This document shows, in pieces, positions 6,936 to 61,904 of a DNA stretch of 64,000 nt. The number at the start of each line of letters is the position of its first letter. Position 1 is the stretch's first letter. This DNA is from Callorhinchus milii (lineage: Eukaryota): assembly GCF_018977255.1 (NCBI RefSeq), contig NW_024704742.1, positions 121,894,001 through 121,958,000 on the forward strand. Reading direction: 5' to 3'. The notes under the pieces were generated by a model. It was not told the DNA's origin. It saw nothing but the letters and a program-made list of their open reading frames with translations, and ran no database searches. A program made the translations under genes and the position numbers.

Positions 6936-6939
6936 ACAG

Positions 6940-7900: not shown

Positions 7901-8168
7901 GCCACATTTGGTGGTGAGAATCCTTAACAATTCAACAGGAATTGAACAATAGAAGCTTTTATGAAGATATATTTGGTACTCTTAAAAAAATCTGCCAAAA
8001 CTCTAGTGAGGACATCTCAAATGCTGCTTGACAATTGAAGAGGAGAAAATTATACCCTTAATAGTCCTTGGGTTGTGATTATAATGGCCAGGGAAGCTGT
8101 GATTCATCCAGATCTTATTCGTGGGTAAAAGCCTTCCTATTGAAATACTAGACCTAAGCATTATCAGA

Positions 8169-8610
8169 TGTCACCCCGGCGCAGTTGGCAGCACGCTTAC
8201 CTCTGAGTCAGAAAGCTGTGAGGCGGTGTGCTAAGCAGTGTGTTGGGACTTTGAACTCACAGCTGACATTCCAATGCAATGCTGGGGGTGTGCCACATTG
8301 TCAGAGGTACCATTCTTCAGTTGAGAGGTTAAATTGAGTTCCTGTCTGCATATTAAAGTGAATGTTAAAGATCCCTCGGCAGTGTTCAAAAAGAGATGGA
8401 AATTTCTCCCAGTGTCCTGTCCAGCAATTACCCAGATAAAATTATCATTCTCTTCATGGCTGGGTCATTACTGAGCATAAATTGGCTGGTGCGTTTGCCT
8501 ACAAAATGCAGTAACTACACTTTACAGTAAATCCTGTGATGTTCTTTGAAAGATCCTCAGGATGTGAAAGGTACTATATCAAATGCAAGAATTATTATTT
8601 ATTATTATAT
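8169..8610 (+). mobile_element. Old full-length DeuSINE (SacSINE1-like)
   Basis: tRNA-like head cctctgagtcagaa; Deu domain gttaaattgag...gttaaagatccctcggcagtgttc...ccagtgtcctg; L2-type tail. Confidence 0.82.
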
Positions 8611-8675
8611 AGCATTTTCCTTGTCACCATCTCTCCTTTCTTCTCTATTTCTGCACCAAATGCTGTGTCATTATG

Positions 8676-8910
8676 AATAATAATAATCCTTGTTTTGATA
8701 TAGAGACCTTATCACGTCTTCGAGACGTCTCAAAGCGCTTCACTGAATATACGGTAAAGTGAATTGACTTATATCTTGTGGGTGGGCACAGCAGTGTCCA
8801 CAAACAATCGTGAATTACATGACCAAATTATTATTTATTTGTAATTTTTCTTTATTTTTGATGGATTTATTATCTCCAGAAAAGCGATCCGCCAATCGAC
8901 TAACAACCGG
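8676..8910 (-). mobile_element. tRNA-derived SINE, long-middle subfamily, 5'-truncated
   Basis: Contains gaaaagcgatccgccaatcgactaacaa, as at 40683-40710 and 37111-37140. Confidence 0.85.
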
Positions 8911-8914
8911 ATTA

Positions 8915-9145
8915 CTACTTACTGACTTTGATCTCCACCTTAACTCTTCCTACCCCATCTCCTCCGATTTCTCTGCTCCCTTCATTAATCTCATCCTCCA
9001 TATTGACTCCCCCACCCACATCTGTGGTCCTCCTCCTCGATCTTGCCATTCATACATAGTCTAAACGTCTCTGAGCTCACCATTTCTGACCACTTCCACA
9101 TATCACTCACCTCGTATATCCCCTCCCTCCACCAAACTCTCCACA
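8915..9145 (+). mobile_element. L2 APE endonuclease fragment
   Basis: DFDLHLN...IDSPTHICG..LDL, then tctgaccac (SDH). Confidence 0.7.
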
Positions 9146-9151
9146 ATTTGT

Positions 9152-9462
9152 GGAGTCCTGTAGCTCAGTGGTTAGAGCACTCGCCTCGCAACTGAGAGAC
9201 CTGGGTTTGATTTCCGGCAGGGCAAAAGCTTGGGCAAGTTTCCTTACTCACATACTTGATAATAATCCCTCAAGAAAAAAAACAATAATAAATTGGTCAA
9301 TTCAATCCACGACTGTTTGTGGGACACTGCTATGAGCAATTGGCTGCTGGGTTTCGCCCATAAATATACAGTCAATTTACTTTACAGTATATTCTGTGAA
9401 GTGCTTTGAGACGTCTAGAAGACATGAAAAGTGCTATATCAAATGCAAGGATTATTATTATT
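9152..9462 (+). mobile_element. Full-length tRNA-Ala-derived SINE
   Basis: A box TAGCTCAGTGG, B box GGTTTGATTTCC, Deu-like body, L2-type tail, (ATT)n. Confidence 0.93.
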
Positions 9463-12125
9463 ACTGAAAAATTCTTTTGGAGTTTCACAGAGTACGAAAT
9501 TGCTACACATATATTTCTAAACCATAATCAACAATTTGAAAATAAGGAAGTGAGATGCCCCTGCAATAAATGATTATTAACTTATTAAATTCATAGTTAC
9601 CTACATTATAGAATGATGTTTCAGAGATGTTTTACTACAAAGTACACAGATATGTCCCCTCGGCTATATCAAATCCAACGATTATTATATTAATGTAATA
9701 ATATTGCTCCCTTAAATGCAGTAAAAGCAAGGTGATGGCAATCACTTTGTGTATAATCTTGCTTTATCTCTCTCTCTCACAGAGGGCCTGCATTATTGAA
9801 AGCTTATCTAAACCAGGGAATTAAACACCTGGAATTATTCAATAAATAGTAATGTAATTAAAAGACAACACAACTTAAAAGCTTTTCTTCTAATTGTGTT
9901 TTGTGAATGGTAAATGCTATGCGGTATATATAGGAATGTATATCAGTATTTTGCGTTCCTATTTCATGACTTTTATAGTGTTAAAATATCCATTTTAAGT
10001 CTCCACTACTCTAAACATTAATCATCATAATTCAGGAAGAACTGCTTCCAACCAAGACAGTTCATGATTATTATCATCAGTAAAAATATTCTGTCAAAAG
10101 GCATTTGTTAACTTCTTCACATATAAATACGTAGTCACTACACTTTACAGTAAACTCGTATGATATGTTGTGACAATATGATAAGGCACTGTATCAAATG
10201 TAAGGATTATTTGAATGAAAAGATAATTTTGTAAGAGATTATTTGAAGCAAAGACACATCGTAACCCTAGATTTCATGATTTGCTAGAATTATGATAAAG
10301 AAAACCTTATAGATTGCACAGAGAGGTGTAGGAACTGGCACCACACAATTGTATATCTCATGGGGATCAATACATTAAAAATGAATTTGTAACAAATGTA
10401 GATATTGCCTGAAATTGCTTTTTGGACACTGGTCTTAATTTTTCTCTTCTCTTTATCTCATTCTATTTCTCTCATTAAAGTGTATGCCATTGCACTGGAG
10501 AGCGTCATTCTTTTAAATATAAACAAACATGGATTGTTTAACCTGTAAATGCTAATCAATCTCTGAGGGAAAAATACTTACATTGTGTTACATAGACTGT
10601 ACCACACTAAGACAGGCCATTTAGACCAACTTGTACACGCCAGTGTTTATACTCCACATAAGCCTCCTCTCTTCTAATGCCCCCTTCTTATTCCTATCTT
10701 CTTCAAGATCACTAATATACACTATCCTTAGAGACTATTATCAACATATAAGATGGCCGAAAGTAAAAGAAATAACAAAATATTTACCATAAAGCAATAA
10801 AATCTGAATTAAAACGAACATAACATGGGGAGTATAATCATTGGCACGGACTAGTTGGGCTAAAGGGTCTGTTTCATGCTGCAGCAGTCTATGTAATTCA
10901 ATATATGAATTGTATGAAGGTATAGATAGGATTATTAAATCTTCCTTTTTAAGAAACTCTAAGTGAGAGGTTGCTAAATAAGTATTCTTTTCAACCATAG
11001 TAATACCACAAAGTATATAATTTTACCAACAGATTGGACAATGTGTAGTCACTGTGAAGGTTCCTTTCACTATATTGTATGGACAAGATGTACAGTGCTG
11101 AAGTTGGAAGCTATCTTTGAGAATAGAACTGTACTATCTGAACCCCCAGCATTCTTCCTGACTTTCTTTCTATCTATTTTGGAATGTAAAAATATTCAGC
11201 ACCACCGGACAAATTTTTCTTTTTAAAAAAAGATGAAGGAACAGTGCACGGAATGCTGAAAGATAAAACACCATTCACTGATCTCACATCAGCACCAGAT
11301 TGTTAAGAGCCAGCTAAACAGCAAAATATTGATGCAACCAACCCGCAGTGAATTTCTTGCAAGAAATAAAATCCAGCAGCAATTCATGTATTGCTGTGGT
11401 ATTGTACGTGTGTAAAAGCTGATTTCTCCTTAAGTTTAAGAAGAGAATTATCCCCCAAAGAAATCAGATTCAACTTTCCTACATAGAGTTTAAGCATTAC
11501 ATTTCGATTCTTGCACTTTGAATGGATTCATTCTGGGTAATCTGATTCAATAATTTAGTACCACAATGGCTTAAATTCTCCTAAGGATTTTATAATTCAG
11601 ATACACGCTGTATTTTTCAAAACATTGCCGCATACTTTGAATTTGTTTGCTGCTTCTGGTTCATGCTATATTTAGAGCTAATAGTTCTAAGTTGTGGGAT
11701 TTTAAACTCTGCCTACTTTGATCCAGATGAACTTCCTGATTTTAACCTTAACTTAATCTCCCATAAAAATGAGTATCATGAAACAAGCCTAAACCTACAT
11801 CAGTAAATTATGGTTGCTTCTTGTGCGCAGTATGGTGATAATGACATTGTCTTGTGAAAATGATCAGCAGGATCAAACACATGAATGCGTGGCTCGAGAA
11901 ATAGTGCTGTAAGGAGGGCTTCTGGTTCCTGGAACATTGGGAGCAGCTCTGTGGCAGGTGAGACCTGTACATGGTGGTTGGGTTACACCTGAACAGGGCT
12001 GGGACCAATGTCCTCGCAGGAGGTTAACTGGGCTGTGGGGAAAGGTTTAAACTAATTTTGAGTGGGGAAGGAATCAGGATGTAGCAACAGAGAGGAGAAG
12101 CAAGTTACACAGAGGGCTGGGAGAG

Positions 12126-12870
12126 ATAAGAAAGTAAGAATTAGGAGCAGGAGTAGGCCATTTGGCCCCTTGAGCCTGCCCTGCCATTCGATAAGATCAT
12201 TCCATAAATTCACTACCCTCTGAGTGAAAAAATGTTTCCTCAACTCTGTTCTAAAAGGCTGACCCTTAATTTTAAGACTGTGACCCCTGGTTATAGATTC
12301 TCCTACCAGGGGAAACAGTCCCTCAGTGTCTACTTTATCCAGCCCTTTAAGAATCTTATATGTTTCAATAAGATCTCCCCTAATTCTTCTGTACTCTAGA
12401 GAATATAGCCCTAGTTTATTCAGCCTATCCTCATAGGTCAGTTCCCTCATCCCAGGAACTAACCGAGTGAATCTACGCTGCACCCCCTCTAGGGCAAGTA
12501 TGTCCTTTTTTAAATAAGGAGACCAAAACTGCACACAATACTCTAGGTGCGGTCTCACCGAGGCCCTATACAATTGCAGCAAGATTTCCCTACTCTTGTA
12601 CTCTAAACCTTTTGCAATGAACGCTAACTTTTTGAGACTGGTGTACAAGGACACCCAAATCCCTCCGAACACTAATCTCTCCCCCTCTAGAAAATAATCT
12701 GTTTTTCTATTTTTTCTACCTATGTGAATAACTTCACACTTCCCCACATTAAATTCCATCTGCCACCTACTCGCCCGCTCCCCAAACCTATCTATATCCC
12801 GTTGCAATCTTTTTGCATCATCCTCAGAGCTTACTCTCCCACCTAGTTTAGTGTCATAGTGTCATTTAGT
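12126..12870 (-). mobile_element. 5'-truncated CR1 LINE of a second family (HER1-like tail), nested antisense in the 11862-16202 CR1
   Basis: ORF 12052-12807 with WQMEFNVGKCEVIH, VRPHLEYCVQFWSP, FFTQRVVNLWN; tail ggccaaatggcctactcctgctcctaattcttac; host resumes gggagag^atgaatacc as in the 31.1 kb copy. Confidence 0.93.
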
Positions 12871-13784
12871 GATGAATACCAATGCAATAAGGAGTCCAGA
12901 AAAAGAAGGGATTAGATGGGAGAAAAATGCAGAGCAGACGCAGTCATTCTTGGAGTGCATGTGCGTAAATGCACGCAGTGTGACAAATAAGATTGGTGAG
13001 CTGCAGGCTCAAGGTGCCACATGGAGTTATGATGTAATGGCAATAACGGAGACTTGGCTCAAACAAGGGCAGGAATGGGAGCTGAATATCCCTGGCTACA
13101 CTGTATTCAAGAGAGATAGGGAAGGAAAAAAATGAGATGGGCTGACAATATTGATTTAAAAACATGGTTATCGCTTGGAAAGGGATGATGTGCTAGAGGG
13201 TCCAAAATCAGAATCTATTTGGTTAGAGTTAAGGAGCAGAAAATGAGCTGTTACTCTGTTAGGTGTATACTATAGACCATCAAATTGTGGGAAGGAGACA
13301 GACGAGCAAATCTGCAAGCAGATTTCAGAAAGATGCAAAACCAATAGAGTAGTGATAATGGGGGACTTCAATTATCCCAATATAGACTGGCAAAATAACA
13401 GTGTAAAGCGTAAGCAGGGAGAAGGATTCCTGAAATGTGTGCAGGATAATTTTCTGGATCAGTATGTTTCCAATCCAACAAGGAAGGAAGCAGTGCTGGA
13501 TCTAGTTCTGGAGAATGAAGTGGGGCACGTGGAGCAGGTTTCAGTAGGAGAGCATCTGGACAACAGTGATCCAAAGATCATTAGGTTTAGAGTACTAATG
13601 GAAAGGACAAGGAACAATTAAAGGTGAAGATACTCAACTGGAAGAGGGCTAATTTCAATGAGTTAAAAAGGGACCTAACCAAGGTGGACTGGAAAGAAAG
13701 ATTGGCAGATAAAACAGCTAATGAGCAATGGGAAACCTTCAAGGAGGAGATAGTTCGGGGACAGAACAAATGCATTCCCATAAA

Positions 13785-13868
13785 ACCAACAACAACAACA
13801 AAATTATATTTGTATCGTGCCTTTCACGTTGGGAGGACGTCCCAAGGTGCTGGACAAACAGAGTTTCC
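13785..13868 (-). mobile_element. Very short L2 tail inserted antisense in CR1
   Basis: aacaacaacaacaaaattatatttgtatcgtgcctttcacgttgggaggacgtcccaaggtgctggaca. Confidence 0.85.
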
Positions 13869-14953
13869 ACAAAGAAGAAAGGTAGGGCATGTAAACCTCC
13901 CTGGACGACTAAAGAAATTGGGATTAAAATAAAACAGAAAAAGGAGGCTTATGTTAAATGTTAGTTCCAAAATACAGAAGATAATCAAATAGAATATAGA
14001 AAATAAAGAGGAGAACCGAAAAAGAAAATAAGAGGAACAAAGAGATTATATGAGAAAAGATTAGCGGGTAACATAAAAGGGAACACTAAGGTATTGCATA
14101 AGCATATAAAGAATAAAAGGTTAGTCAAAGGTAGGGTGGGGCCAATTAGGGACCAAAGAGGAAATCTTCTTGTGAAAGCCAAGGGCATAGCTGATGTACT
14201 GAATGAGTACTTTGCATCCGTCTTCACAAAAGACGAGGATGCAGCCAATGCCACAGCATCGGAGGAGAGGGTAGAGAACTTGGATAGGATAAGAATAAAC
14301 AGAGAGGAGGGGCACTAAAAAGGTTGATGGTGCTTAAGGTAGATAAGTCACCCGGTCCAGACAGGATGCATTCTAGGTTACTGAGTGAAGTGAGGGTGGA
14401 GCGGAGGCTCTGGCCACAATCTTTCAATCCTCCTTGAACACCGGGGTGATGCCAGAGGATTGGAAGGTTGCAAATGTTACTCCCCTGTACAAAAAGGGGC
14501 AGAAGAATAAACCTAGGAACTACAGGCAAGTCAGCCTAACTGCAGGCCAGTCAGTAGTAGGGAAACTTCTAGAGACTATAATCCGGGACAAAATAATTTT
14601 TTTCTTAAAAAGTATGGGTTAATAAAGGACAGCCAAAACAGATTTGTTAAAGGCAAATCACGTCTAACAAACCTGATAATTTTTTGATGAAGTAACGGAG
14701 AGGGTGGATGAAAGTAGTGCAATTGATGTAGTTTATATGGATTTTCAAAAGGCGTTTGATAAAGTGCCACATAAAAGACTTGTAAGCAAAATAGAAGCCC
14801 ACGGTATTAAAGGGACAGTGACAGCATGGATACAGAAATGGTTTGGAGACAGATAGCAGAGAGTGGTTGGTGAATGCTTGTTTTTCTGACTGGAGGGAAG
14901 TATGCAGTGGTGTCCCCCATGGGGACCATTGCTCTTTTTGATCTTTATATATA

Positions 14954-17905: not shown

Positions 17906-18075
17906 TTTTTTGGGGGGGTAGGGTCAGCTGTGTGTCTGACGCCCATTACCATGCTTAAGAATATCCAAATCAGACTGAGAATTCCATACATCCCACTTAG
18001 ACATGGAAATAGATAAATTGTTCGAAAGGAATACGCATTCTTTCCCTGGAGGGATGCATCCTGCTTACCTAATGT

Positions 18076-18398
18076 GGAGTCCTGTAGCTCAGTGGTTAGA
18101 GCACTCGCTTTGCAAGCGAGAGACCTGAGTTCAATTCCAGGAAGGGCGAAACCTTGGGCAAGTTTCCTTACTCCACACGCCTAATAATAATCCCTCCAAA
18201 CCCCAAAACAATAATAAATTGGTCATTTTCAATCTACGACTATTTGTGGGACATTGCTGTGCGCAATTGCTGCCGTGTTCACCAACAAATATACAATCAA
18301 TTCACTTTACAGTGTGTTCTGTGAAGCGCTTTGGGACGTCCCCCCAACGTGAAAAGCGCTATATCAAATGCAAGGATTATTATTATTATTATTATTAT
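18076..18398 (+). mobile_element. Full-length young tRNA-Ala-derived SINE
   Basis: A/B boxes; anticodon arm CTCGC-TTTGCAA-GCGAG; (ATT)n tail. Confidence 0.95.
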
Positions 18399-19371: not shown

Positions 19372-19650
19372 TAATAATAAAAATAATAATAATCCTTGCA
19401 TTTGATATAGCGCTTTTCACATTGGGAGGACGTCCCAAAGCGCTTCACAGAACACACTGTAAAGTGAATTGACTGTATATTTGTGGGCGAACGCGGCAGC
19501 CAATTGCGCACAGCAATGTCCCACAAACAGTCGTAGATTGAAAATGACCAATTTATTATTGTTTGGGGTTTTGGAGGGATTATTATTAGGCGTGTAGAGT
19601 AAGGAAACTTGCCCAAGGTTTCGCCCTCTGCCTGGAATTGAACCCAGGTC
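19372..19650 (-). mobile_element. Young SINE, 5' part of head missing
   Basis: Near-identical reverse complement of 18120-18398. Confidence 0.95.
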
Positions 19651-27531: not shown

Positions 27532-27857
27532 TAATAATAATAATAATAATAATCCTTGCATTTGATATAGCGCTTTTCACGTCAGGAGGACGTCCCAAAG
27601 CGCTTCACAGAACACACTGTAAAGTGAATTGACTGTATATTTGTGGGCGAACGCGGCAGCCAATTGCGCACAGCAATGTCCCACAAACAGTCGTAGATTG
27701 AAAATGACCAATTTATTATTGTTTTGTTTTGGAGGGATTATTATTAGGCTCTGTGTGGAGTAAGGAAACTTGCCCAAGGTTTCGCCCTCTGCCTGGGATT
27801 GAACTCAGGTCTCTCACTTGCAAAGCGAGTGCTCTAACCACTGAGCTACAGGACTCC
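27532..27857 (-). mobile_element. Full-length young SINE
   Basis: Complete head (ggactcc at 27851-27857) and (AAT)n tail. Confidence 0.95.
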
Positions 27858-27956
27858 ACTGAGTAATGAGAGAAAGAGAAATTCAATATTGAATAATGGA
27901 ATTTCATTTCAAGTATTACAATGCATGCCAAATGAAATCCGTTTCTCAACATGCAA

Positions 27957-30900
27957 TTCATAGAATCATAGAATTATACAGCACAGAAGGAGGCCATTCG
28001 GCCCATTGTATCTGTGTTGGCTTGAAAAGAGCTGTCCAATTCCATCCCACTCCCCCGCTCTTTACCCATAGCCCTGCAAACTTATCCTCCCCAAATAATA
28101 TCTACTTCTCTCTTAAAAGCTGTTATCAAATCTTCCACCACACTTTCAGGCAATGCGTTCCAGATCTGAACAACTCGCTGTGTGAAAAAATTTCTCCTCA
28201 CCTTCCATTTGTTTCTTTTAACAACTATTTTAAATGGGTGTCCTCAGGTTACTGACCCACCCGCTAGTGGAAATAGTTTCTCCTTGTTCACCCCATCGAA
28301 TCCTCTCATAATTTTGAAAACGTCTATTAAGTCTCCTCTTAACCTTCACTGTTCCAAGGAGAATAATCCTAGCTTCTCTCGCCTATCCTGATAACTGAAG
28401 TCCCTCATTCCTGACACCATCCTGGTAAATCTCCTTTGCACTCTCTCCAATGCCTTGAAATCCTTCCTAAAATGTGGTGCCCAGAACTGAACACAGTACT
28501 CTAGCTGAGGCCTAACCAGTGTTTTATAAAGGTTCATCATAACTTCCTGACTTTTGTATTCTATTTATAAAGCCTAGTATCCCATATGCTTTTTTAACAG
28601 CTTTATCTACCTGTCCTGCCACCTTCAAAGTTTACTTATATGAACTCTCAGGTCTCTCCGTTCCTTCACCCCCTTTAAGATTGTACCATCATCTTATATT
28701 GCCTCTCTTCATTCTTCCTCCCAAAATGCATCACTTTGCCCATTTTACCAGTCTGTCCATTTGCAGTTTGCTACTATCCTCCTCACTGTTTACTACTTTT
28801 CCTAGCTTAGCATCATCTGCAAACTTGGAAATTGTACTCCCTATACCCAAGTCCAAGTCATTTATGTAGAACAAAAGCAGTAATGGTCCCAATACTGATC
28901 CCTGGGGGACACCACTGCACACTTCCCTCCAGTCAGAAAAACAACCATTAACCACTACTCTCTGCTTTCTGTCCCCTCGCCAGTTCTGTATCCATGCTGC
29001 CACTGTCCGTTTAATACCATGGGTTTCTATTTTGCTTACAAGTCTCTTATGTGGCACTTTATAAAACACCTTTTGAAAATCCATATAAACGACATCAGCT
29101 GCACTATCTTCGTCCACCCTCTCCGTTACTTCATCAAAAAACTATCAGGTTTAGACATGATTTGCCTTTAACAAATCCATGTTGGCTGTCCTTTATTAAC
29201 CTATATTTTTCTCTGGCTCTGAAACTCTATCCCCCAGTGCCTTCGCCTTGCTTCCTCCCTTTCCTCCTTCAAGGCCGGTCTCAAGACCTTTCTCTTTGAC
29301 CGTGCCTTCAGCTCCCCTCTCAACTCTCTACCCCCTCCTCGCCCCCTCCCTTCCCTCCCCTCACCATTTCCCCCCTCCTCGCTCCCTCTCTTCCTTCCCC
29401 CTGACCATTTCCCCCCTGCTCGGGTTCTGACCCAACTGTTCAACGCTTTGGGACGTCCTCCCGACGTGAAAGGCGCTCTATAAATGGAATCTAGTTGATG
29501 TTGCTATATTTTTCTAAGTGAAAATTTATTTTGTTCCAGATTATATTCTCAAGAAGTTACCCCACTACTGATGTTAGGCTAACTGGTTCTGGGGTTTATC
29601 CTTCTGAACCTTTTTGTACAGGGGAGTACCATTTGCAACCCTCCAGTCTTCTGGCACCACCCCGGAGTCCAAGGAGGATTGAAAGATTGTGGTCAGAACC
29701 TCCGTTATTTCCACCCTTACTTCCCTAGGATGCATCCCGTCCGGACCAGGTGACTTATTTACCTTGAGTACCGACAACTTTTTCAGTACCTCCTCTCTGT
29801 TTATTCTTATCTTATCCAATTTCTCTACCCTCTCCTCCAATACTGTGGCATTGGCTGCATCCTCTTCTTTTGTGAAGATAGCTGCTAAGTATTTACATCA
29901 GCCATGCCCTTTGCCTCCACAAGAAGATTTCCTCTTTGGTCCCTAATTAGACCCACCCTACCTTTGACCAACCTTTTATCTTTATATGCTTATAAAATAT
30001 CTTGGGATTCCCTTTTATGTTGCCTGCTTTTCTTTTCTCACACAATCTCTTTGCCCCTCTTATTTCCTTTTTCAGTTCGCCTCTGTACTTTCTATATTCT
30101 ATTTGATTATCTTCTGTATTTTGGACCTGACATTTGTCATAAGCCTCCTTTATCTGTTTTATTTTAATTCCAATTTCCTTACGCATCCAGGGAGGTTTAG
30201 ACGTCCTACCTTTCCCCTTTATGGGAATGTATTTGTTCTGTCCCCAAACTATCTCTTCCTTGAAGGCTTCCCATTGCTCATTAGCTGTTTTATCTGGCAA
30301 TCTTTCTTTCCAGTCCACCTTGGCCAGGTCCCTTTTTAACTCAATGAAATTAGCCCTCTTCTATTTGAGTATCTTCACCTTTGATTGCTCTTTGTCCGTT
30401 TCCATAAGTGCTCTAAATGATATTGATAAGTATCTAATGATATTGTGATCACTGTTGTCCAGATGCTATCCTACTGAAACCTGCTCCACTTGCCCCACTT
30501 CATCTCCAGAACTAGATCTAGCACTGCTTCCTTCTTTGTTGGGTTGGAAATTATCCTGCACACATTTCAGGATCCTTCCCTCTGCTTACGCTTTACACTG
30601 TTATTTTGCCAGTCTATGTTAGGATAATTGAAAACCTCCATTATTGCTACTCTATTGGTTTTGCATCTTTCTGAAATCTTTTTGCAGATTTGCCTATTTC
30701 CTTCCCACTATTTGGTGGTCTGTAGTATACACCTAACAGAGTAACAGCTCCTTTTCTGCTCCTTAACTCTAACCAAATAGATTCTGGTTTTGGACCCTCT
30801 AGGACATCGTCCTTTCCAGGCCATAACCATGTCTTTAATCAATATCGCCACCCCACTCCCCTCCTTTTTTCCTTCCCTATCTCTCCTGAATACATTGTAG

Positions 30901-32225
30901 TCAGGGATATTCAGCTCCCATTCCTGCCCTTGTTTGATCCAGGTCTCTGTTATTGCCACTACATCATGACCACATGTGACAACTTGAGATCACCAATCTT
31001 ATTTGTCACACTCCATGCATTTACCACATGCACTCCAGGACCAACTTTGTCTGTTCTATATTTCTCCCCGGTCTAATTCCTCCTTTTTCTGGATTACTCC
31101 TGATTACATTGCTATTCGTCTCTCCCAGCCCTCTATGTAACTTGTTTATCCTCTCTAATGCTACATCTCGATTCCCTTCCCCCCTTAAAATTAGTTTAAA
31201 CCCTTCCCCACAGCACTAGTTAACCTCTCTGCGAGGACATTGGTCCCAGTCCTGTTCAGGTGTAACCCATCCACCTGATACAGGTCCCACCTGCCCCAGA
31301 ACTGATCCCAATGATCCGAGAACCTGAAGCCCTTCTTTCTACACCATTTCTCCAGTCATGCACTCATGTGTTTGATCCTGCTGTTTTGATACTCACTTGC
31401 ACGAGACACTGGGAGTAATCCAGAGACCACCACTTTTGAGTTCCTACTCTTTAGCTTTTTCCCTAGCTTCTGATACTCTTCCTGTAGGATCTCATCCCTT
31501 TTTTACCTACGTCAAGATCCCAACATGGACCATGACTTCTGGATGTTCCCCTTCCCCCTGTAGAATGTTTTGCATGGTTCCGTGATGTCTTTCTTTGCAG
31601 AAACACCTGTGTACTCCTTTCACCATTGTGTCCCCAATGACAATTGCATTGACACTCTTGCCTATGAGCCCCTGTGCATCCATTTGCTTTTGACTCCCCT
31701 CTCCAGAGGTGACATCACGCTGACTGTAAAGAGAACTGGATTGCGAGTACCACACTCAGAGGGGATTTCTGCACTGCCCATCCCTTCTTCCTACCATACC
31801 GGGTGGTCACCCACTCATTCTCCTTCTGAACCCTCCGTGGCTGTAGGGGACCACCTCCTGCAACATTCGTTCAATGAACTCTTCAGCCTCCCATATGCTT
31901 TGTAGCCTCTCCTCGAGCTCAGAAACTCTGAGCTCAAGCTCGAGCAGTTGGACGCACTTACTACACATGTGTCTGTCCAGGGCACACAGAGCATCCTGGA
32001 GTTCCCACATGGCACACATTGTGCATGCAACCAGTCTCAGCTGCCCTGCCACATTCCCAGACATGTTTTATATTATTTTAATATAAATATATATTTTATA
32101 ATTCTGCACCTCTTTCCCCCTCTGCACTGAATTCCCACTCTCACCAAATTCCTTAACAGAATTCTCACTCCGTTTCACCTCACTCAGTTCCCTCCTCAAG
32201 CTGCTGGGCTCTCTGCTCCATTCTT
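27957..32225 (-). mobile_element. Near full-length decayed CR1 LINE (5' UTR, ORF1 zinc-finger/coiled-coil + esterase, ORF2 APE + RT, 3' tail)
   Basis: ORF1 CTMCAMW...HMCSKC...LELRVSELE (31807-32064); esterase-like IVIGDTMV..VMVHVG (31507-31755); APE AITETW (30708-30959); RT YMDFQKVF, GVPQGSVLGP, KFADD (28731-29117); LVRPQLEYCVQFW; (ATTCTATG)n tail; many frameshifts. Confidence 0.95.
29210..29502 (+). mobile_element. L2 3' end nested antisense to the 27957-32225 CR1
   Basis: ttcaaggccggtctcaagacc...gctttgggacgtcctcccgacgtgaaaggcgctctataaatg; ctatatttttc on both sides (TSD-like, ~29202 and ~29504). Confidence 0.9.
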
Positions 32226-36689: not shown

Positions 36690-38035
36690 TGTTTTTCCTC
36701 CTGTCCCCGCCCAGACACCTGTGGGGTACCAAAGGCTCCATTCTTGGCCCCCTTCTTTTCTTCATTTACATGCATCCTCTCGGTGGTGTCATCTGCAGAT
36801 ACGGAGTCAACTTCCACATGTTTGCAGATGATACACAAATTTACTTTTCCTTCAACTGCGACGCCACTGATTTTCTGTTAGCTTGTTTTTTGGACATCAA
36901 GGCCTGGATGAGCACAAACTTCCAGCAGTTGAATGTTGACAAGATAATAATAATCCTTGCATTTGATATCGCACCTTATCACGTCTTTGGGTTGTCTCAA
37001 CGCACTTCACAGAATATACTGTCAATTGCGCACAGCCAATTGCGCACAGCAGTGTCCAACAAACAGTCGTGGATTGAGTGACAACATTTTTTTAAGGGAT
37101 TATTAGCCCCGGAAAAGTGATCCGCCAATTGACTAACAACCCGGTTCCTACTTACTGCTAGGCAAACAGAGATGTGTGGAGTAAGGAAACGTGCCAATGT
37201 TTCGCCCCGTCCTGGAATCGAACCCAGCTCCTCTCACTTGATGATGATACTTCTTGGCTCCCGTCTATGTTTTCTCTCCTGCAGTTCTGACCTCCTCAAC
37301 CTCCTGGTCTTATCCCTAAGGCTTACTGAACCTGTGCATATCCTAGGCATCAGGTTTGATCCCTAGCTATCCTTCTTACCCCATATCCATTCCTTGAACA
37401 GGACTGCTTTCCTCCACCTCCATCACATAGCCCGCCTCTGACCTTACCTCACACCCAATGCAGCCGAGGCACTCACCATGATTTCATCACCTCCTGCCTT
37501 GACTATTCCAACGCATGTCTCAACAATCTTTACAGCTCCACGATCCACAAAATCCAACTAAATCAAAACTCTGCTGCCCATATATTCACCTGTGTCTGAA
37601 CTCTGTATCCTCATCACATCAATCCTTACCAGGCTCCACTAGCTCTCGATCACAGAAAGGATCGACTTCAAGATCCTCATATTCGTCTACAAATCGCTTC
37701 ATGTCTTGTCACTGACCAGCTTTTTGACATGCTTTACTCCCCACCTCCATCACCCGCCTCTTCTACTCGACTGGCTCATCCTTTGTCCGATCCGCTGCAC
37801 CATCACTGGGCCTGGTTGCAGTCACTACGCCCCAAAACCTTGGAATTCTCTCCCTCAATCTGTCTGCCTTGCCCTCTCCTCTTCCATTTTCAGATCATGC
37901 CTGAAGACCTTCTTCTTTGACCATGCATGCAATCATTTCTCCCTCCCCAGGCTGAGCTTTAGGCTCTGCTACTGTTAAGTGCTCCAAGAAGTTACTCTGC
38001 ATGAAGGGCGCTATAAATGCTAGTTTTGTTGTTGA
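36690..38035 (+). mobile_element. L2 LINE of a second family containing an antisense SINE at 36944-37240
   Basis: [36 protein letters not shown]; tail gggcgctataaatgctagttttgttgttg. Confidence 0.92.
36944..37240 (-). mobile_element. Long-middle SINE nested in L2
   Basis: Tail at 36944, B-box region at ~37213-37227, duplicated caattgcgcacagc. Confidence 0.9.
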
Positions 38036-44193: not shown

Positions 44194-44515
44194 GGAGTCC
44201 TGTAGCTCAGTGGTTAGAGCACTTGCTTTGCAAGCGAGAGACCTGTGTTCAATCCCAGGCAGGTCAGGGCGAAACCTTGGGCAAGTTTCCTTACTCCACA
44301 CACCTAATAATAATCCCTCCAAAACCAAAAAACAATAAGAAATTGGTCATTTTCAATCTACGACTGTTTGTGGGACATTGCTATGCGCAATTGGCTGCCG
44401 CGTTCGCCCACATATATACAGTCAATTCACTTTACAGTGTGTTCTGTGAAGCGCTTTGGGACGTCCTCCCGACGTGAAAAGCGCTATATTAAATGCAAGG
44501 ATTATTATTATTATT
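44194..44515 (+). mobile_element. Full-length young SINE
   Basis: Complete; atagg at both ends. Confidence 0.95.
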
Positions 44516-44871
44516 TTATTATAGGTCTAATTTATCACTTCAGTAGGTTTGAGCTTATCTCACGTTTCTGGGTGAGAGGAAGCAAGTCAGAATATCACCA
44601 AGCAAGCGACATAAAGGTAGGAATCTACCTAGTGCAGAGCAATGCTACATAGAGTAGAGTCCTGGAACGCATTGTTACCATACAACCTCACTCGTACCTT
44701 TCCCTACTCAAGTCCCTGCAGTCTGGTTTCTACCCTGCCCACAACACTGAGACAGCACAGATTTTTTTTTTAGCAACATCAACTATCGGAATGCTGTAAA
44801 GGTATATGATTTCCTAACTATGCCATTACATTGCAGAAAATATTGCTTTGAGCCATCTGATCTAATTTGTG

Positions 44872-48454: not shown

Positions 48455-49270
48455 GAGTTCAAGATCCTTGTCCTCATCTTTGAGGCCATCCATGGCCTTG
48501 CCCCCTCCTACCTCTCTGACCTGCTGACTCCCTTCCAACCTGCCTGCTCCCTCCGTTCATCGGGCTCCGGCCTGCTCCATGTCTCCCGCTCGACCCGCCC
48601 TACCATTGGTGGCTGGGCTTTCAGCCTCTCTGCCCCCACACTCTGCCCCCTTCACTTCGACCGTGCCTTTGGTCTCCCCCTTCTATTTCTCTGCCTTCCC
48701 TCACCCCTACACCACCCTTCCCCCATGCTCGGGCCCCGACACCTGACTGATCAGCGCTTTGGGACGTCCTCCCGACATGAAAGGCGCTCTATAAATGTAA
48801 TTTTGTTGTTGTTGTTTACAAACACCCTCCTCACCCGCCAGTCTCCCCAGCTCCACTATGCACAAAATCCGATTATTTCAAAACTCTACCGCTATATACT
48901 CACCCGCTCTAAACTCTATACCCCCATCACACCAGTCCTTGCCAGGCTCCTCAGGCTCCCTATCACAGAACGGATCGACTCCAAGATCATCAAACTTGTC
49001 TACAAATCGTTTCACGCCCCAGCACTTCCCTACCTCCCCGACTTGCTTATTGCCTAAGCCACCACCTGCCGCCTCCATAGGCTGGCTCCTGCATGTCCCT
49101 CATCCCCACCGTTCCACCATCGCCGGCCGTGCTTTCAGCCACTTGCCCTGAAACTCTGGAACTCTCTCCCTTAATCTGTCCGTGTTGCCCTCTCCTTCCC
49201 CATTTTCAGATCACACATTTCAGACCTTCCTCTTCGACCGTGCCCACCGGCACTTCTCCACTCTACCCCC
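48455..49270 (+). mobile_element. Two adjacent L2 3' fragments of different families (48455-48815 and ~48820-49270)
   Basis: First ends in aggcgctctataaatgtaattttgttgttgttg; second encodes ITPVLARLLRLPITERIDSKI and lacks a tail. Confidence 0.85.
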
Positions 49271-52019: not shown

Positions 52020-52510
52020 TCTATCCCTCCACTTTGCCCTTTCCTTCCGCATTATCAGGTCGTGCCTGAAGACATTCCTATTCAACGGTGCCTACGTCAC
52101 CTCCCCCTTCCCCGGCTCAGTGTCCAGCTTTCTGGGACGCTACCCTGTGTAAGGGCGCTATATAAATGCAAGTTGTTGTTGATTTCAAGGTCCTCATCCT
52201 TCACACCCTGGCACCTCCCATCTCTGTCTGACCTGCTGATACCCGATTTCTCAGCCAGTCCCTTTGCTCAGCTGCCACAGTTGTTGGCTGAGCCTTCAGC
52301 CACTACATGCCTAACTTTTGGAACTACTTGCCTCAGTCCCTCCACTTAACCCCTTCCTTACCTTTCAATCCCACCTTAAGATATACCTTTTGACTGCACC
52401 TATGGAAATCTCTCTCTCCCTTTTTTCGTTGCTCTGCATCCAAGCCGGCCACTGTGCAGTCAGTGCTCCAAAACATTAAATGCCCTGTATAAATTCAGGT
52501 TGTTGTTGTT
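52020..52510 (+). mobile_element. Two L2 3' fragments
   Basis: Tails gggcgctatataaatgcaagttgttgttg (~52160) and tataaattcaggttgttgttg (~52508). Confidence 0.75.
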
Positions 52511-52832
52511 CTTGAATAATAAATGTGTTGTTCTCAAGAGAGCAATAATAACTTAAAGCCTGGACTGAGGCGAGGCTATTTGACTGATGGACCCTACTTC
52601 ATCCAGAGTCCCCAACAAAACCTTATCCTATGATCACTTTATTCCATCCACTCTAACTCCTGTGAGACAACTCCTTGTAGCGTCTCCCTGACTCTGTGTG
52701 ACATGTAGGGAATCACTTGGAGAAAGTGTGGTTTACGATGTCAGGTACATTTGCCAGCAACTTCACAGCAGGTCTGCCTGCTAATGGATAAAAGACCATC
52801 TACAATATAGAACTTGACCCCCTCCCCCATCA

Positions 52833-53159
52833 TTACACACACTGTACCCCTCCCAGCACACACATGGTACCCAGCACACACACTGTACCCCACCCAGAGC
52901 ACACACTGTACCCCTCCCAGCACAAACACTATACCCCTCCCAGCACACACACTGTACCCCTCCCAGCACACACACTGCACCCCTCCCAGCACACACACGG
53001 TACCCCACCCAGCACATACACTGTACCCCACCCAGCACACATCCTATACCGCACCCAGCACACACTGTAACCCACCCAGCACATACTGTACCCCACCCAG
53101 CACACACCCTGTACCCCATCCAGCACACACTGTACCCCACCCAGCACACACATTGTACC
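52833..53159. repeat. Minisatellite, ~22-26-bp unit cacactgtacccc(a/t)cccagcaca
   Basis: About a dozen visible units; one more unit after the L2 insertion at 54302-54322. Confidence 0.95.
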
Positions 53160-54301
53160 AACAACAACATTACATTTGTATAGCGCCTTTCACATCGGGA
53201 GGACGTGACAGTGTTTTGGACCAGAGCTGGGGGTCGGTATCAGGGAGGGTTGAGGGCAGTGGGGGAAGCAGGGAGATCAAAAGCATGGTCGAAGAGGAGG
53301 GTCTTGAGATGGGTCTTGAAGGAGGCAAGGGAGGGGGTGAGATGGAGTTCCAGAGGCAGAAGGCCCGCTAATAGTGGGGTGAGCGAGATGGGGAATGTGA
53401 AGCAGGCCGGAGCCTGCTGAGCGCAGGGAGTGAGCAGGATGGTAGGGGTTAGGAGGTCGCAGAAGTAGGTGGGAGCAAGACCATAGAGGGCTTTGAAGGT
53501 GAGGACCAGGATCTTGAACTCTATCCTCTGTGTGATGGGAAGCCAGTGGAGTCTGGTGAGGATGGGGGTGATAGGGTCACAGAGCCTGGTGCGGGAGAGG
53601 ACACGGGCTGCAGAGTTCTGGATAATCTGCAGCCTATGGAGGGAGGAGTTGGGGAGGCCAACAAGCAAGGAGTTTGCATAGTCGAGCCTTGATGTAATGA
53701 AAGAGTGTATGAAGGTTTTGGCGGCCTGTGGTGTGAGACAATGGCGGAGCCGGGCAATGTTGCGGAAGTGGGGAAGGCAGAATGGGTCATGACACAGACG
53801 TGGGGTAGAAAGGATAGTTAAAGGTCAAAATGATGTCTATGAGCAGAGGGCTAAGGAGGTAGAGCTGAGAGGTAAGAGAGGGGTAGGGATGAGATCGAGG
53901 GGCAGGTGGCCGTTTCATGCTGATTATAATTGTGGTGAGAGAGGAGTGGGAGACAGGTTCGAAGTTGTGGAGGGAAGGATAGGTAGTGGGAGGGGTAGAT
54001 AGGGAGAGTGTAGCAGTTGTCATTTGAGGTGAGGATGGGTGAGGCATGAGCGGGTGGGCGGAGGAGCCAGTTCATGATGGAGAAGAGGAGCCTGCAGTTG
54101 TCCTTGGCCTCCAAGATTGTCTTGGAGTAGAACTACGATTTAGCGGAGGCGAGGGGGGAGCAGTAATATTTGATAAGGTCCAGCCAGATCTGCTGATGAC
54201 CGTTAAGTTTGATCTAAGCAAGGTGTGCTCAGCGGCTCGCAACTGTGTTTTAAGAGAGCGGAGGTGACTGGTTTACCATGGTGATTTTTGTGAATAGGGA
54301 C
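53160..54301 (-). mobile_element. Internally deleted L2 LINE inserted in a minisatellite
   Basis: Reverse tail at 53160; LQIIQNSAARVL..LHWLPI ORF; linker-region segment 53820-54300 joined without the RT core; gtacc flanks both ends. Confidence 0.85.
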
Positions 54302-56365: not shown

Positions 56366-56637
56366 ATGGCACAGGAAGCAACAAGTCAGGACATGGCAAC
56401 CTCACCTGATCCGAGGAAGGAATCATATCCACATCCTCTGCTGAATGAAGCTTTTGTTAAGATCTTAACTGAAAATGTACTGGGACATGAGAAGTCAAAA
56501 ACGGTACGAAAGTCACCATCCATTTCACCTGGGTTGTCTCCCAGCATTTCACCCAGAAATTCCCCAGTGGTTTTGCGAAGAGTGATGCTGAGCAAAAACA
56601 TTCAAAAGAAGAGGAGGTTTACAGTGGCTCATACCTG
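56366..56637 (+). CDS. PDE4D: Isoform-specific first coding exon of cAMP-specific phosphodiesterase 4D, PDE4D5-type N-terminus (90 codons + 2 nt, phase-2 intron follows)
   Basis: Translation MAQEATSQ...HPLLNEAFVKILTENVLGHEKSKTVRKSPSISPGLSPSISPRNSPVVLRRVMLSKNIQKKRRFTVAHT aligns colinearly with recalled human PDE4D5 (MAQQTS...NPWLNEDLVKSLRENLLQHEKSKTARKSVSPKLSPVISPRNSP...KQRRFTVAHTC). ATG in strong context (GTAATGG) with in-frame TGA at 56357. Donor TG|GTAAGA at 56637/56638 splits the final Cys codon. HEKSKT favours PDE4D5 over the PDE4B3 paralogue. Confidence 0.93.
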
Positions 56638-58119
56638 GTAAGAACAAATTGTATGTGGAACAACAGTTAATTTAGACATTTAATGTTTAACTTTATTTTG
56701 TGAAATTATTGCCGGGCCTCTATGAATCTTGTCACTGGAGGCTTGTGAGGTGTTAAATATATACTTTATTATCACCAGACTATGGGCTGTATTATTTTTG
56801 AATAGCCTGCAAGACAGAGAATATATTTTGGATTCATAGAATCAGATATACACAACATGCCCATATGCATGCTCTATTGTTCTTGAAAAGTTCAAGGTAC
56901 AGAAGCAGTGATATAAATAATCTGACATCAGCCATTAATGAACACAGTGACCTCGGCAGTGGTTTTATTCCTGGTTTCTCAACATATAAATTTATGATGG
57001 GGAAGACTGTATAAAAGGAAAGCTACGTAAATTAGATTAAATGAGATGTGTGCTCACAGAAATACTATTAGAGTTGACATGCCAGTGTTCTATAAATGAC
57101 TTACCACTGGCAGCAATCTTAGATTAACGGACGAGGTATGTGGTTCATATCAATTAGTAATTTTGTCAACTTATATCAGATGTGAAACGGCTTCAAAGCT
57201 ACGGCAACAAAACAATTGCTGTGGCAATATGAACTTTTTTCTCCGTCCCCTATTATGGAAGCAAATATGATTTTTCACTCTGAAGGAAAATGAGACATTT
57301 AAGCATTGAAACGCTGCATACAAAAATGTGATGATAGATCACCGAACAATTCCGAAATCATTGTGATAAAGAGAATAGAGGTACATTCGGTGACCAGTTT
57401 GGATTTTATTCAATCATGGCTTCAATTGAAAGCAAGTGAGTTTTTTTAACAGCAGAAAGCCGCATTCTAATCTGGATCATGATTGATTGAATGTTTATAA
57501 GGCAATTTGTGGTTTATACATCGGCAGACCAGCAGTGTTCCTATGGTGTAGTGCAGTGCTCTGGTGTACCGACACGCTGCCTCACAGATGGTAGGTTGCA
57601 AGTTCCTGCTGAAAATTATTCATATATTTAATTCCTGTTCCAAGTTACAGTGATGCTGAGCAAAGGACCTGTGCTTCCCCAGCAGTTGAAGGGCTCAATG
57701 CATGTACCTCTAGCCATTTCTGAAGCAGGTCATGGCAGTTGGTTTTGCAATAACATTGGCAGGGGGTTGGGAGCAGATTACCTGGCTGCCCTCTTGGCCA
57801 GAAACTGGGACGTGGCGTTGAGTAAAATAAGGGAGAAAATAGCAACAAAATGGAAGATGCAGTGACAACAGAATTTTCTTAAAGGGGTGTTGTTTTTGTT
57901 GCAAAAACTTTAATTGCTTGAGTGCAAAAAGCCACGTTCGACAAAGCATCATGTGCGAGTGACACAACGATACATGTCAATTGAACTTGCATTTAATTTA
58001 CATGATGTGTTCTTAAATAGATGGGAAGCATTTCTCATTTACAACACGTGTTCTGTAGATCTACACACCTGTGTTTTCAGTCCAATTTACTGTTTAATGA
58101 TTTCTCAGCACATTTGTTG

Positions 58120-59198
58120 GGAACCTCCCACCTCGATTTTTCCAAAGCTAGCTCCACCACCCACCCATAAAATATAACTAATTCAAAAACTCTATTGCCC
58201 ATATTTACACCCATACCAAACTCCGCATCCTATCATCCCAGTCCTTGCCAGGCTGCACTGTCTCCCTATTGCAGAATAGATCGTTTTCTGGATCCTCACA
58301 CATACTTATAAATCAATTCATGCCTTAGCACCTCTTCACTTGATCGATCTGCTTACACCCCATTCCACTTCTCACTTCCTTCGCTCAGCTGGCTCCGGTC
58401 TTCTACACATCTCTTGTCCCCTCCATCCACTATGGGTGGCCATGCTTTCAGCCACTATACCCGAAACTCTGGAACTGCCTCAATCGCTCCAACATACACA
58501 TCTTCGGTTTGCATCTGAAAACCTTTTGTTTTGATCATGCCTATAGTTACCTCTCTTCCCTGGCTCGGCATCAAACTACACCACTATTAAGTACTCAGAG
58601 ATGCTATCCTCGTGATAAAAATATTATCATATTTATAGATGCTATCTTTTTCTATACTAATAAAGTCAAAATGTGTGTGTCTGTTCGCCAAGAACGCAAT
58701 AACTGATTGATGTAGGGACATGATTATTCCTCATCGGAAAGGTCTTGCATGGCGGAATGTCATGGGTGTATTTGTTTTCAGGGATCTCCTATCGTTGATA
58801 AGCTATATTAAAAAATATATTAAAAAATGCTATATTTAAGCTCCAAAAAATGTGTGCATGGTATTCTGCAACAAAGATCACACACCCTTCTAGAGAAATA
58901 CATCTCTTACTACTAATAAAGACAAAATGTGCTCCCAACAGGAGTCCTCCACACCTGAATCCTCCCACAGGAGTCCTCCCAAAAGGATATGTGTGCAAAT
59001 ATGTGAACAAGGGATGCTAAGGAGTTCAATAACCCATTTTCATAATCTTAAGGACAAAGATGCCTAAGAGGTAAACATCAAGCCATTCAAGGACAAATAA
59101 AAATGCCAGATGAAAGAGAGAAGGCCGATTAAATGAAGCTGGTTGCAAGCGTAGCTGCAACAGGTACAGCTAGTATAAATACAAGTTGGTGTTGTTGC
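58120..59198 (+). mobile_element. L2 3' fragment whose tail is split by the Helitron
   Basis: atcccagtccttgccaggctgcactgtctccctatt; tail completed after 59173 by tataaatacaagttggtgttgttg. Confidence 0.8.
58645..59173 (+). mobile_element. Complete non-autonomous Helitron (rolling-circle transposon)
   Basis: 5' A|TC...CTATACTAATAAAG; subterminal hairpin GTTGCAAGCGTAGCTGCAAC (59142-59161); 3' CTAG|T (59170-59174); no TSD; removing it restores the L2 tail gatgcta^tataaatacaagttgg; Rep-like YVCKYVNKG at 58988-59014. Confidence 0.88.
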
Positions 59199-59249
59199 TG
59201 TTAATGCAAAGAGACCTAAAAAAGTCCTAGCATTTGGTCTAACTCCTTT

Positions 59250-59373
59250 CACGCACCAAGCTCAGTGAGCCGATCACCCCCATCCTCGCCCAACTTCACT
59301 AGCTACCCATCCCCGGAGGATCGAGTCAAGATCTTCGCCTCACTTTCAGTGCCCTCCATGGTCTTGCTCCTCC
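59250..59373 (+). mobile_element. L2 fragment fused to the antisense CR1
   Basis: gatcacccccatcctcgcccaacttcactagctacccatc...gccctccatggtcttgctcctccc. Confidence 0.85.
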
Positions 59374-60700
59374 CAACCTGTAATTTCTGGGTTTGTCTTT
59401 CTGCCCCTTTTTGTAGAGAGGGGTAACATTAGCCACTTTCCAGTCTCTTGGCACCATTCCTATGTCCAATGAAGATTGAAATATAATGGCCAAAGCCTCC
59501 GATATTTGAACCCGTATCTCCCACAGCAACCTTGGGTGAAACCCATCTGGTCCTGGTGACTTATCAATTTTGAGCCCAGTCAATCTTTTCAGAACTTCCT
59601 CTCGGTCTATAGTAATCTGATCTATTTCCTCTACCCTCTCATCCAATACTGCGGCATTTGGGGCATCCATTTCCGTTGTGAAGACAGATGCAAAGAACTC
59701 GTCCAGTACATCAGCCATGCCCTCTGCCTCCACAACAAGATTGCCGTCATTGTCTTTGATTGGCTCCACCCTACCTTAACTAACCTTTTTTTCCTTTATG
59801 TGCTTATAAAATATTTTAGGATTCCCCTTTATGTTACCCGCTAACCTCTTCTCATGCGATCTTTTAGCCCTTTTCCAGTCAAGCATTTTCACCCTTGACT
59901 GTACTTTGTCCCTATTCATGAGTATTAATAATATGGTCACTGTTACCTAGATGCTCCCCTACCGAAACCTGTTCAACCTGACCTATTTGATTCCCCAGGA
60001 CTAGATCCAGCAATGCTTCCTTTCTCGTAGGACTGGAGACGTACTGCTCAAGAAAATTTTCCTGTACACAGTCTATGAATCTTTCTCCTGCCTTGCCCTT
60101 AGCGCTGCTATTTTGCCAGTCTATATTGGGATAATTGAAATCCCCCATTATCGCAACTCTGTTTGCCTTACATCTATCCGCGATCTGATAGCAGATCTGC
60201 TCCTCTATCTCCTTCCCACTGTCTGGTGGTCTATAGTAAACCCTTATCAGTGTAACCACTCCTTTCTTATTTCTTATCTCTAACCAGATGGATTCTGTTG
60301 TCGGGCCCTCCAGAGCCTCGTTCCTTTCTACAACTATAATTGTATCCTTAACCAATATTGCCACCCTTCCTCCTTTTCTTCCTTCTCTATCCTTCCTGAA
60401 CACATTATATCCTGGAATATTTAACTCCCATTCCTGTCCTGGCTTGAGCCATGTCTCCGTTACTGCCACCACATCGTAACCCTGTACGGCCAGTTGAACT
60501 TGCAGCTCATCAAGCTTATTCCCTAAGCCACGTGTATTTAGGTACATGCATTTGAGGAAATTGTCCGCTTGTACCTGTTCTACACTTCCCACTTGTCTTT
60601 TTTCTCTAACCTCTAATTCATTGTTTATCCTTGGATACCCATCCCACCTCAACACTGGTTTAAATCCGCCCCCACAGCATTTGATAATCTCTTGGCAAGG
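59374..60700 (-). mobile_element. CR1 LINE fragment: open APE endonuclease domain and start of RT, internal deletion, 3' part missing
   Basis: ORF 59912-60730 (YLNTRGL, VTETW, YYRPP, GDFNYPNIDW, LDLVL, SDH); ORF 59326-59769 (KSPGPDGFHP, DWKVANVTPLYKKG, NYR). Confidence 0.93.
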
Positions 60701-61904
60701 AAGCTCACCCCTGCCTTGCCTAAGTGCCACCCATCCTCAAGGTAAAGATCCCACCTCCTCCAAGAAAAGTGTAGCTTTTCTTTTAGGTATAAGACAGTAT
60801 ATGTGAATAGCTACCCCCTCACTTCAACACATTTCTGACCTAAGCTATACCGAGAGGGGGGCTGCTTCCACACAGGACCATCTGAGGGAGAATAATGTTC
60901 GGGTGCTGTTGAGCATCTCCTTATCTTTGGCTGAAGAAGGGCATTGGTGGAGGCCTTAGAATGGTTTCGCAATTGGTGAGAACAAGGGACTTGCAAGATA
61001 ATTGAAGGATTCGTCTAAGGTCCTCTATCTTCTCACTGGGCCTTACCATGTGTGATGTTCTCATGTTTTGGATTCATATATAATAGATTGCTTTCTGCTG
61101 ATGTGTATGTAAGGACAATGACTATTTGTGGAACATTGTTGTGCAAAATTCGCCTGCAAATACACAGTCCATTCCTGTTAAATGTTTTGAGATGTTTCGA
61201 CATTGTGATAACATGCTATATCAAAATAGTAAAATAGCCCTTGCATTTGATATAAAGTCTTTCACGTTGGGAAGACATCCCAAGGCACTTAATATCACCG
61301 GAAAGTTGCAAGAATTATTTTTATCATTGTGACTGAATATTTAGGGTAAGAAAATTGTAAATGCATGGCCTGAAGATATTCACAAAATACATTTGAGATG
61401 CTGCGTAAAATACATTGACTCTCCTCAAAAACTGCTTATTAAAAAGCATCCCCAGCATCATGTGCTGTTTTTGACTGGAATGTAAAGGTCGGAAGTATGT
61501 CCTGATTCTAATCACAAACTCAATGTCAACTTCCAAATGGCAACATGTGCAGCATCAGCACCTGATGTGTGCAGCGCAACACAAGTTCAGCCCCAGGTTA
61601 GACAGCACCTTCACATGTTTGAAAGCCAAAAAGTGACTGATAATAGCACTTACAAAAGATCCACACAGTTTGTTTCAGTGCTCATCTGGCACTTACTGAC
61701 AAACATATTTATGGCTGTTATGTGTTATGTCCTGGCGCCGTGATGGTGGGATAGGGTGTCACATGAATGATTATATTTCATGCCATGATGTGCAACTGTG
61801 GAAACAGTCCAGCAGTCAACATGGTGTCAGCCTAACGCAGCTGGTTACATTCTTTTCTTGGGTCAAAAACTTGTGGGTTCAAGCCCCACATTGGGACAAA
61901 ATAA

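Follow-up and report, generated by a model that had tools for sequence, protein, structure and literature searches.

We identified a 529-bp non-autonomous Helitron in an intron of the PDE4D gene of the chimaera Callorhinchus milii, where it splits the tail of a decayed LINE between an A and a T. The insertion lies on the plus strand of a 64,000-nt stretch of contig NW_024704742.1 (the whole of which we refer to as the window), and we put the probability that it is a Helitron at about 95%. In its interior, the element carries a second 5′ terminus, and by whichever route it arose, its origin is very probably composite.

Termini of the element

The element starts with TC at 58645-58646, directly behind an A at 58644, and ends with CTAG at 59170-59173, directly before a T at 59174. 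Both edges read exactly as the initial annotation had claimed, as does its 20-nt hairpin 8 nt before CTAG.

58645..59173, plus strand: whole non-autonomous Helitron (HLE1) insertion, 529 bp, delimited by its termini and A-T target
58645..58675, plus strand: outer 5′ terminus (left terminal sequence), TC preceded by A, at the point where the LINE tail breaks off
59140..59173, plus strand: 3′ terminus (right terminal sequence), common to a second family with a different interior
59142..59161, plus strand: subterminal hairpin, 20 nt long, 8 nt before CTAG

DNA folding gave the hairpin eight pairs, one bulge and a 3-nt loop. Its energy is -4.8 kcal/mol alone and -5.7 kcal/mol within the last 34 nt, for which a rival fold scores -6.0 kcal/mol, 0.3 better than the hairpin fold; the hairpin is thus weak. 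The element has a GC content of 38.6% and no coding capacity, its longest stop-free frame being 75 codons. We found no terminal inverted repeat: the 5′ end is unlike the reverse complement of the 3′ end, and of the 39 inverted repeats detected, the 25 longest include no pair resembling such ends. Neither side of the element carries a flanking duplication of 3-11 nt, and Rfam returned 0 matches at E<=1 over 58000-59400. HLE1 Helitrons are defined, in the accessible part of PMC11417382, by a 5′ TC, a hairpin plus CTRR and A-T targets (insertion between the two letters). The element shows the following of the HLE1 features: a TC start, a CTRR end, a hairpin, an A-T target without duplication and 3′ mobility.

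Short terminal motifs of this kind arise readily by chance. CTAGT occurs 62 times in the window on both strands, and a hairpin precedes one of these (1/62), which is this end. Shuffled windows contained a mean of 1.13 CTAGT-plus-hairpin ends, with at least one in 73 of 100 shuffles, and the terminal motifs alone therefore prove nothing. The 12-nt 3′ motif likewise had 4 window matches against 3.67 expected. No other copy of the element was found in the 64-kb window. The case is carried by the LINE tail that the element splits and by contigs from public sequencing runs.

Insertion into a LINE tail

The element interrupts the 3′ part of a LINE that we take to be an L2. The left part shows 67-71% identity to its relatives in the window at 48849-49163 and 37534-37707.

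58145..58644, plus strand: 3′ part of the host LINE, left of the insertion, placed by this identity to window relatives and by tail alignment
59174..59200, plus strand: remainder of the LINE tail, right of the insertion, beginning with the target T

A motif search of the window recovered eight further LINE tails of this kind, which serve as paralogous empty sites. When no target-site duplication is assumed, the 19 bases of the right flank fit the majority of these tails at 17/19 positions. The fit falls to 7/19 with one base removed and to 5/19 with TA removed, and of 63,981 plus-strand positions no more than 4 fit as well as 17/19. On the left, 5 of the 8 flanking bases fit the tail majority, and the upstream part of the tail aligns at about 58576-58615. 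The break in the tail sets the position of the 5′ end to within one base. Directly after CTAG the tail resumes, with no remnant of an outer element. Comparison with the tail majority thus places the insertion between A and T without target duplication. TA is present on both sides of the element, but since its removal drops the fit to 5/19, it belongs to the original tail. The right-flank register (17/19 against 5/19) accordingly rules out a TA target duplication, and the claim that the element lacks a target-site duplication stands.

The same comparison bears on a cut-and-paste origin. Tc1/mariner MITEs are defined by a TA target duplication together with terminal inverted repeats. That the element is a MITE of this type, or another cut-and-paste element with a TA target duplication, is very improbable: the TA on either side would suit it, but the terminal inverted repeat is missing, the right-flank register breaks once TA is taken out, and families that share only a 34-nt 3′ end (see below) are a Helitron trait.

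About 20 extra AT-rich letters, absent from the eight other tails, lie left of the insertion at 58613-58635 and hold a 6-pair hairpin of -3.0 kcal/mol. Because of these letters, the empty site is an imperfect tail. The proposal that excision restores a LINE tail holds, apart from these additional letters on the left. The tail offered for comparison was placed near 52135; it is actually at about 52153-52176.

Other copies in public sequencing runs

A search of public sequencing runs with the stretch listed thirteen, all under one organism code. Five of them, from two studies, contain the stretch or part of it; the remaining eight share almost no words with it, from which its absence does not follow. 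We aligned four of the five (X1-X4) as contigs to 58000-59330 at 80% likeness. The best-matching run may be the source of the window and hence gives no independent support. Over 58630-59169, summed depth in X2-X4 is 185-7711 per bin, compared with 4.7-11.2 in the unique flank at 58000-58179; all data of X1-X4 are contigs, so summed depth is no copy number. The element is multi-copy in all four aligned runs.

Behind 59174, 62, 65 and 58 contigs of X2, X3 and X4 continue into unlike flanks (agreement 0.45-0.47), and one contig of X1 leaves the element there. These contigs, which may derive from both families sharing 59140-59173, show that many loci have one exact 3′ boundary. A check proposed in the initial annotation, for copies that extend past CTAG, thus came out in its favour, as other copies share the 3′ terminus and then enter unlike flanks. 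Before 59140, 86, 82 and 75 contigs of X2, X3 and X4, and 1 of X1, have loose letters that agree at 0.75-0.77. A second, common family therefore shares only the last 34 nt (59140-59173) and has a different interior. This second family could lead to an autonomous partner.

Evidence for the 5′ boundary is indirect, coming from the split LINE tail and from joints of other contigs, which enter the element at 58651 (X2, X3, X4) and 58650 (X2); none of the 24 listed loose ends, of 1854, falls at this boundary. At the locus itself, the 5′ junction is bridged by one contig in each of X2, X3 and X4 (58433-58798; 0, 2 and 0 differences). For the 3′ junction, the listing has one X2 contig, which reaches just 24 letters into the element. 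Among the 15 listed joints of 109, none skips the element as an empty allele would. One contig per run in X2-X4 passes from the LINE part into the 5′ end of the element (58267 to 58651), perhaps where a further copy has entered a related LINE.

These contigs also speak to the idea that the motifs came together by chance in decayed intron DNA or through an assembly artefact. We consider this hardly credible. The terminal motifs do lie within chance and the window holds no second copy, but the stretch is covered by many contigs that all depart from it at a single base, and contigs bridge both the 5′ junction (X2, X3, X4) and the inner junction described below (X1, X3, X4). The split tail and the contigs together uphold the annotation of a non-autonomous canonical Helitron. 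Searches elsewhere were blank: the exact 5′ 21-mer had 0 matches in metagenome contigs and the 3′ pattern (a 29-mer) had 0 in metagenome and viral contigs, so that no autonomous partner came to light there. These blanks say nothing, because the collections contain little vertebrate DNA.

A second 5′ terminus inside the element

The interior of the element consists of two modules separated by a repeat of its own 5′ terminus.

58676..58902, plus strand: internal module A, common to many copies (depth 530-4413 per bin over 58675-58899 in X2-X4)
58903..58931, plus strand: second, internal 5′ terminus, TC after A, a repeat of the outer terminus
58932..58981, plus strand: minisatellite with a 14-15-nt unit in 3.4 copies (TRF)
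58932..59139, plus strand: internal module B, common to many copies (contig pieces over 58932-59167, most 13-16% different)

Between 58911-58931 and 58655-58675, 20 of 21 letters are identical. This terminus repeat has 2 matches in the window against 0.02 expected, a number reached in 0 of 100 shuffles. The repeat extends back to the TC at 58903, which is likewise preceded by A, and over 31 columns the two 5′ termini differ at 3 letters and by a 2-nt gap. Contigs of X1, X3 and X4 cross the inner junction with 0-2 differences, so the inner terminus is no assembly error.

Nor is this arrangement the norm of the family, on three lines of evidence. Depth drops from 383-520 at 58904 to 93-119 at 58908, so the majority of copies run along module A as far as the inner TC and diverge from there. 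Other copies link module A to module B without an inner terminus (joints from 58792 to 58940 and from 58850 to 58979); in one of them (X1 record 2), 94 letters separate 58766 from 58971, compared with 204 in this copy. Finally, the inner type of terminus elsewhere leads into module A, through joints from 58930 to 58688 and from 58930 to 58724. The description of the element as complete passes over the two 5′ termini and the probably composite structure.

The number of minisatellite units seems to vary among copies, and joints that go back within the minisatellite run from 58981 to 58932, 58982 to 58960 and 58978 to 58960. Module A contains a 12-nt A/T unit in 2.1 repeats at 58804-58828. We also considered 58645-58893 as a complete separate Helitron and rejected it: the CTAG at 58890-58893 precedes A, and no GC-rich hairpin stands at the right distance.

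Proposed origin of the probable composite

A second 5′ terminus that also follows an A suggests that this copy is a composite formed by nested insertion, the route that we favour by a modest degree. The underlying mechanism is modelled on Helraiser. According to the accessible text of PMC4778049, its RepHel transposase needs the left terminus, takes the hairpin as a stop signal and cuts at CTAG; circles with head-to-tail junctions form, and insertion occurs at AT. By analogy, a RepHel transposase made elsewhere and acting in trans would have nicked the outer TC, peeled the strand off and stopped at the hairpin and CTAG, and the product would have been joined into the A-T site of the decayed LINE tail in the PDE4D intron. 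In the nesting itself, a 271-bp deletion derivative (58903-59173) may have inserted at an A-T site inside another family member. The transposase would then have started at the outer TC and ended at the first 3′ terminus met, and the 529-bp composite would have moved as one unit.

Nesting of this kind would explain the A before the inner TC, the lack of an outer remnant behind CTAG and the clean host site. It also has precedents in other genomes: 17.6% of maize helAs carry several 5′ termini, with a nested origin described (PMC3288121, accessible part), and compound transposition of Helitrons is described in bats (PMC4224331, accessible part). Counting against nesting, no free-standing 271-bp copy was seen in the contig data. 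At the one other locus where the match begins at 58932 (X3 record 19), it is preceded by at least 48 other letters.

Alternatively, the inner terminus may have arisen within a single donor by re-initiation or template switching in the course of rolling-circle copying, or through a head-to-tail dimer later deleted, with no second insertion. We regard this as possible but doubtful. At another locus, one X2 contig of depth 13.8 joins 59172 to 58650 across three letters, in the manner of a head-to-tail pair; Helraiser produces head-to-tail junctions (accessible text of PMC4778049); and an autonomous Xenopus HLE2 has two left termini as a direct repeat (PMC11417382, in the part available). The dimer route, however, requires two precise deletions, one of them taking the whole of module B plus its 3′ terminus, and the inner TC is preceded by A, as expected of an insertion. 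The 3-letter and 2-nt-gap difference between the termini suits two donors, but age would produce it also.

A third route, two separate insertions at this site, would have a 3′-truncated copy (58645-58902) arrive first and the 271-bp element land exactly at its end. Each piece opens with a TC behind an A and is followed by the target T; in the accessible parts of the respective papers, Helitrons prefer landing near or in other Helitrons (PMC3288121), and a missed hairpin yields truncations (PMC4778049). We nevertheless judge this route improbable, as the second element must strike the last base of the first, and module A closes at 58902 with neither a hairpin (folding of 58850-58895) nor a CTRR.

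Age

Twenty-one listed pieces from other loci fall entirely within the element, and their difference from the window is 5.7-15.9%, with a median of 13.5%; several of these are one locus in three runs, and listing by longest pieces gives diverged copies more weight. Of 27 listed sites, 26 have a letter other than that of the window in most of the depth, which amounts to at least 4.9% of the element. From the divergence of the other copies (5.7-15.9%), we infer that the element is old. The data also support the earlier statement that it is younger than the LINE that hosts it, for it interrupts a LINE part that is itself 67-71% identical to its window relatives.

Host gene and neighbouring repeats

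The Helitron lies in the intron that follows a PDE4D exon, on the same strand and 2008 nt behind it, in agreement with the 2 kb first given.

56366..56637, plus strand: PDE4D first coding exon, 69-76% identity to the N-termini of five elasmobranch PDE4D proteins

The best 5 of 25 matches in a protein search with the exon were these elasmobranch proteins, with bony vertebrates next at 55-65%. The exon also matches the PDE4D fragment PDB 1E9K, and it ends at a GT donor in the phase required by the next Cys of its relatives. We assume that the exon is that of the 4D5 isoform and that 1E9K is the 4D5 region. In a tree of 12 rows (with 11 of the 25 matches, picked by clade), the exon joins the five elasmobranchs at 100/100 and stands outside them with weaker support (80/84), a placement in keeping with a chimaera. 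It retains a residue near its end that the five elasmobranch proteins lost, and a tblastn search of the 64 kb with a full-length relative found no other PDE4D coding exon. We have no indication of a host function for the Helitron, and its nearness to the exon is no evidence of an effect.

Other repeats in the window provide context. The youngest-looking is a presumably SINE-like repeat of ~330 bp, whose copies at 18074-18397, 27532-27859, 44194-44522 and 19372-19650 are 92-95% alike. LINE fragments that we take to be CR1-like, with endonuclease-like and reverse-transcriptase-like frames, lie at 59326-60736 (minus strand), beginning about 200 nt behind the Helitron, and also at 12052-14526 and 29506-31123. 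A low-complexity tandem array at 52741-53371 has long open frames on both strands and is no gene on its face.

Discussion

This copy is an ordinary member of an old, gene-less Helitron family in a lineage for which canonical Helitrons are already listed, both in the chimaera and in skates. It adds a hand-checked non-autonomous Helitron to a group of animals with few and thinly curated DNA transposons, and with it a clan in which no fewer than two interiors are combined with one 3′ end. It also provides, on a small scale, a vertebrate case of a probable composite in which two 5′ termini occur, a feature already known from maize. Since it sits in a known repeat and has no target duplication, it is a possible presence/absence marker among related species. 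The finding would gain weight if horizontal transfer had brought the clan to skates and rays or to bony fishes as well, or if PDE4D splicing or expression had been altered by the insertion.

A bolder reading is that the copy belongs to an uncatalogued modular clan of chimaera Helitrons, horizontally acquired and kin to skate and ray Helitrons, modular in the sense of several interiors on one 3′ terminus, nested composites and head-to-tail pairs. We think this unlikely. The accessible supplement of PMC11417382 reports HLE1 in four of eight chondrichthyan genomes, with 11,154 in Leucoraja, 4,818 in Mobula, 1,651 in Hypanus and 1 in Carcharodon. If the bolder reading were true, the counts of 1,651-11,154 in three batoids, 1 in the white shark and none in four genomes would represent separate invasions.

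Published surveys offer limited context, and the statements given here refer to the accessible parts of each. Helitron is named among the superfamilies present in a whale shark paper (PMC8455134). The elephant shark is called poor in DNA transposons in two papers (PMC4350176, PMC6817897), the first of which reports Helitron loss only in birds. Helitrons are mentioned in PMC10468316 only in its reference list, the word 'helitron' is absent from one supplement of PMC3964593, and 'rolling' is absent from the main text of PMC12952989. Our literature search, whose reach did not include Repbase or Dfam, found no paper on a non-autonomous chimaera Helitron family, and a search by Helitron family names likewise found none.

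Among known elements, the nearest by classification are Helitron-1_CM from Callorhinchus milii and Helitron-1_AmRa and Helitron-2_AmRa from Amblyraja radiata, which Supplementary Table S1 of PMC11417382, as far as accessible, assigns to HLE1 and credits with Rep and Hel domains. They belong to the same group and the same host class as the element, a comparison made by name alone. They have Rep and Hel, whereas the element described here encodes nothing. With a chimaera as host, Helitron-1_CM suggests itself, again by name, as the candidate autonomous partner.

Likenesses in structure come from bats. HelibatN of vespertilionid bats and Helraiser share with this element a 5′ TC, a 3′ CTAG, an A-T target and no target-site duplication (PMC4224331 and PMC4778049, accessible parts). 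The Helraiser hairpin is 19 nt long and stands 11 nt upstream of the end (accessible text of PMC4778049), compared with 20 nt and 8 nt here. Bat Helitrons span 123-5,503 bp, a range that includes 529 bp, and their families share the last 30 nt while their interiors differ (same two papers, as accessible). Unlike in HelibatN and Helraiser, the hairpin here is bulged and weak, and the likeness to Helibat is one of description, not of end sequences.

The Helentrons (HLE2) belong to the same rolling-circle superfamily, and one Xenopus element among them also has two left termini. They are defined by short terminal inverted repeats and T-T targets (accessible part of PMC11417382), whereas the element has no such repeats and an A-T target. 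We therefore rejected membership of this group.

The composite structure itself has a match in maize, where helitrons also contain a true-looking internal 5′ terminus, for which a nested origin followed by composite transposition was proposed (PMC3288121, accessible part). Most maize helitrons contain gene fragments, and pseudo 3′ termini are frequent in them, whereas the chimaera element has a second start and no internal 3′ terminus.
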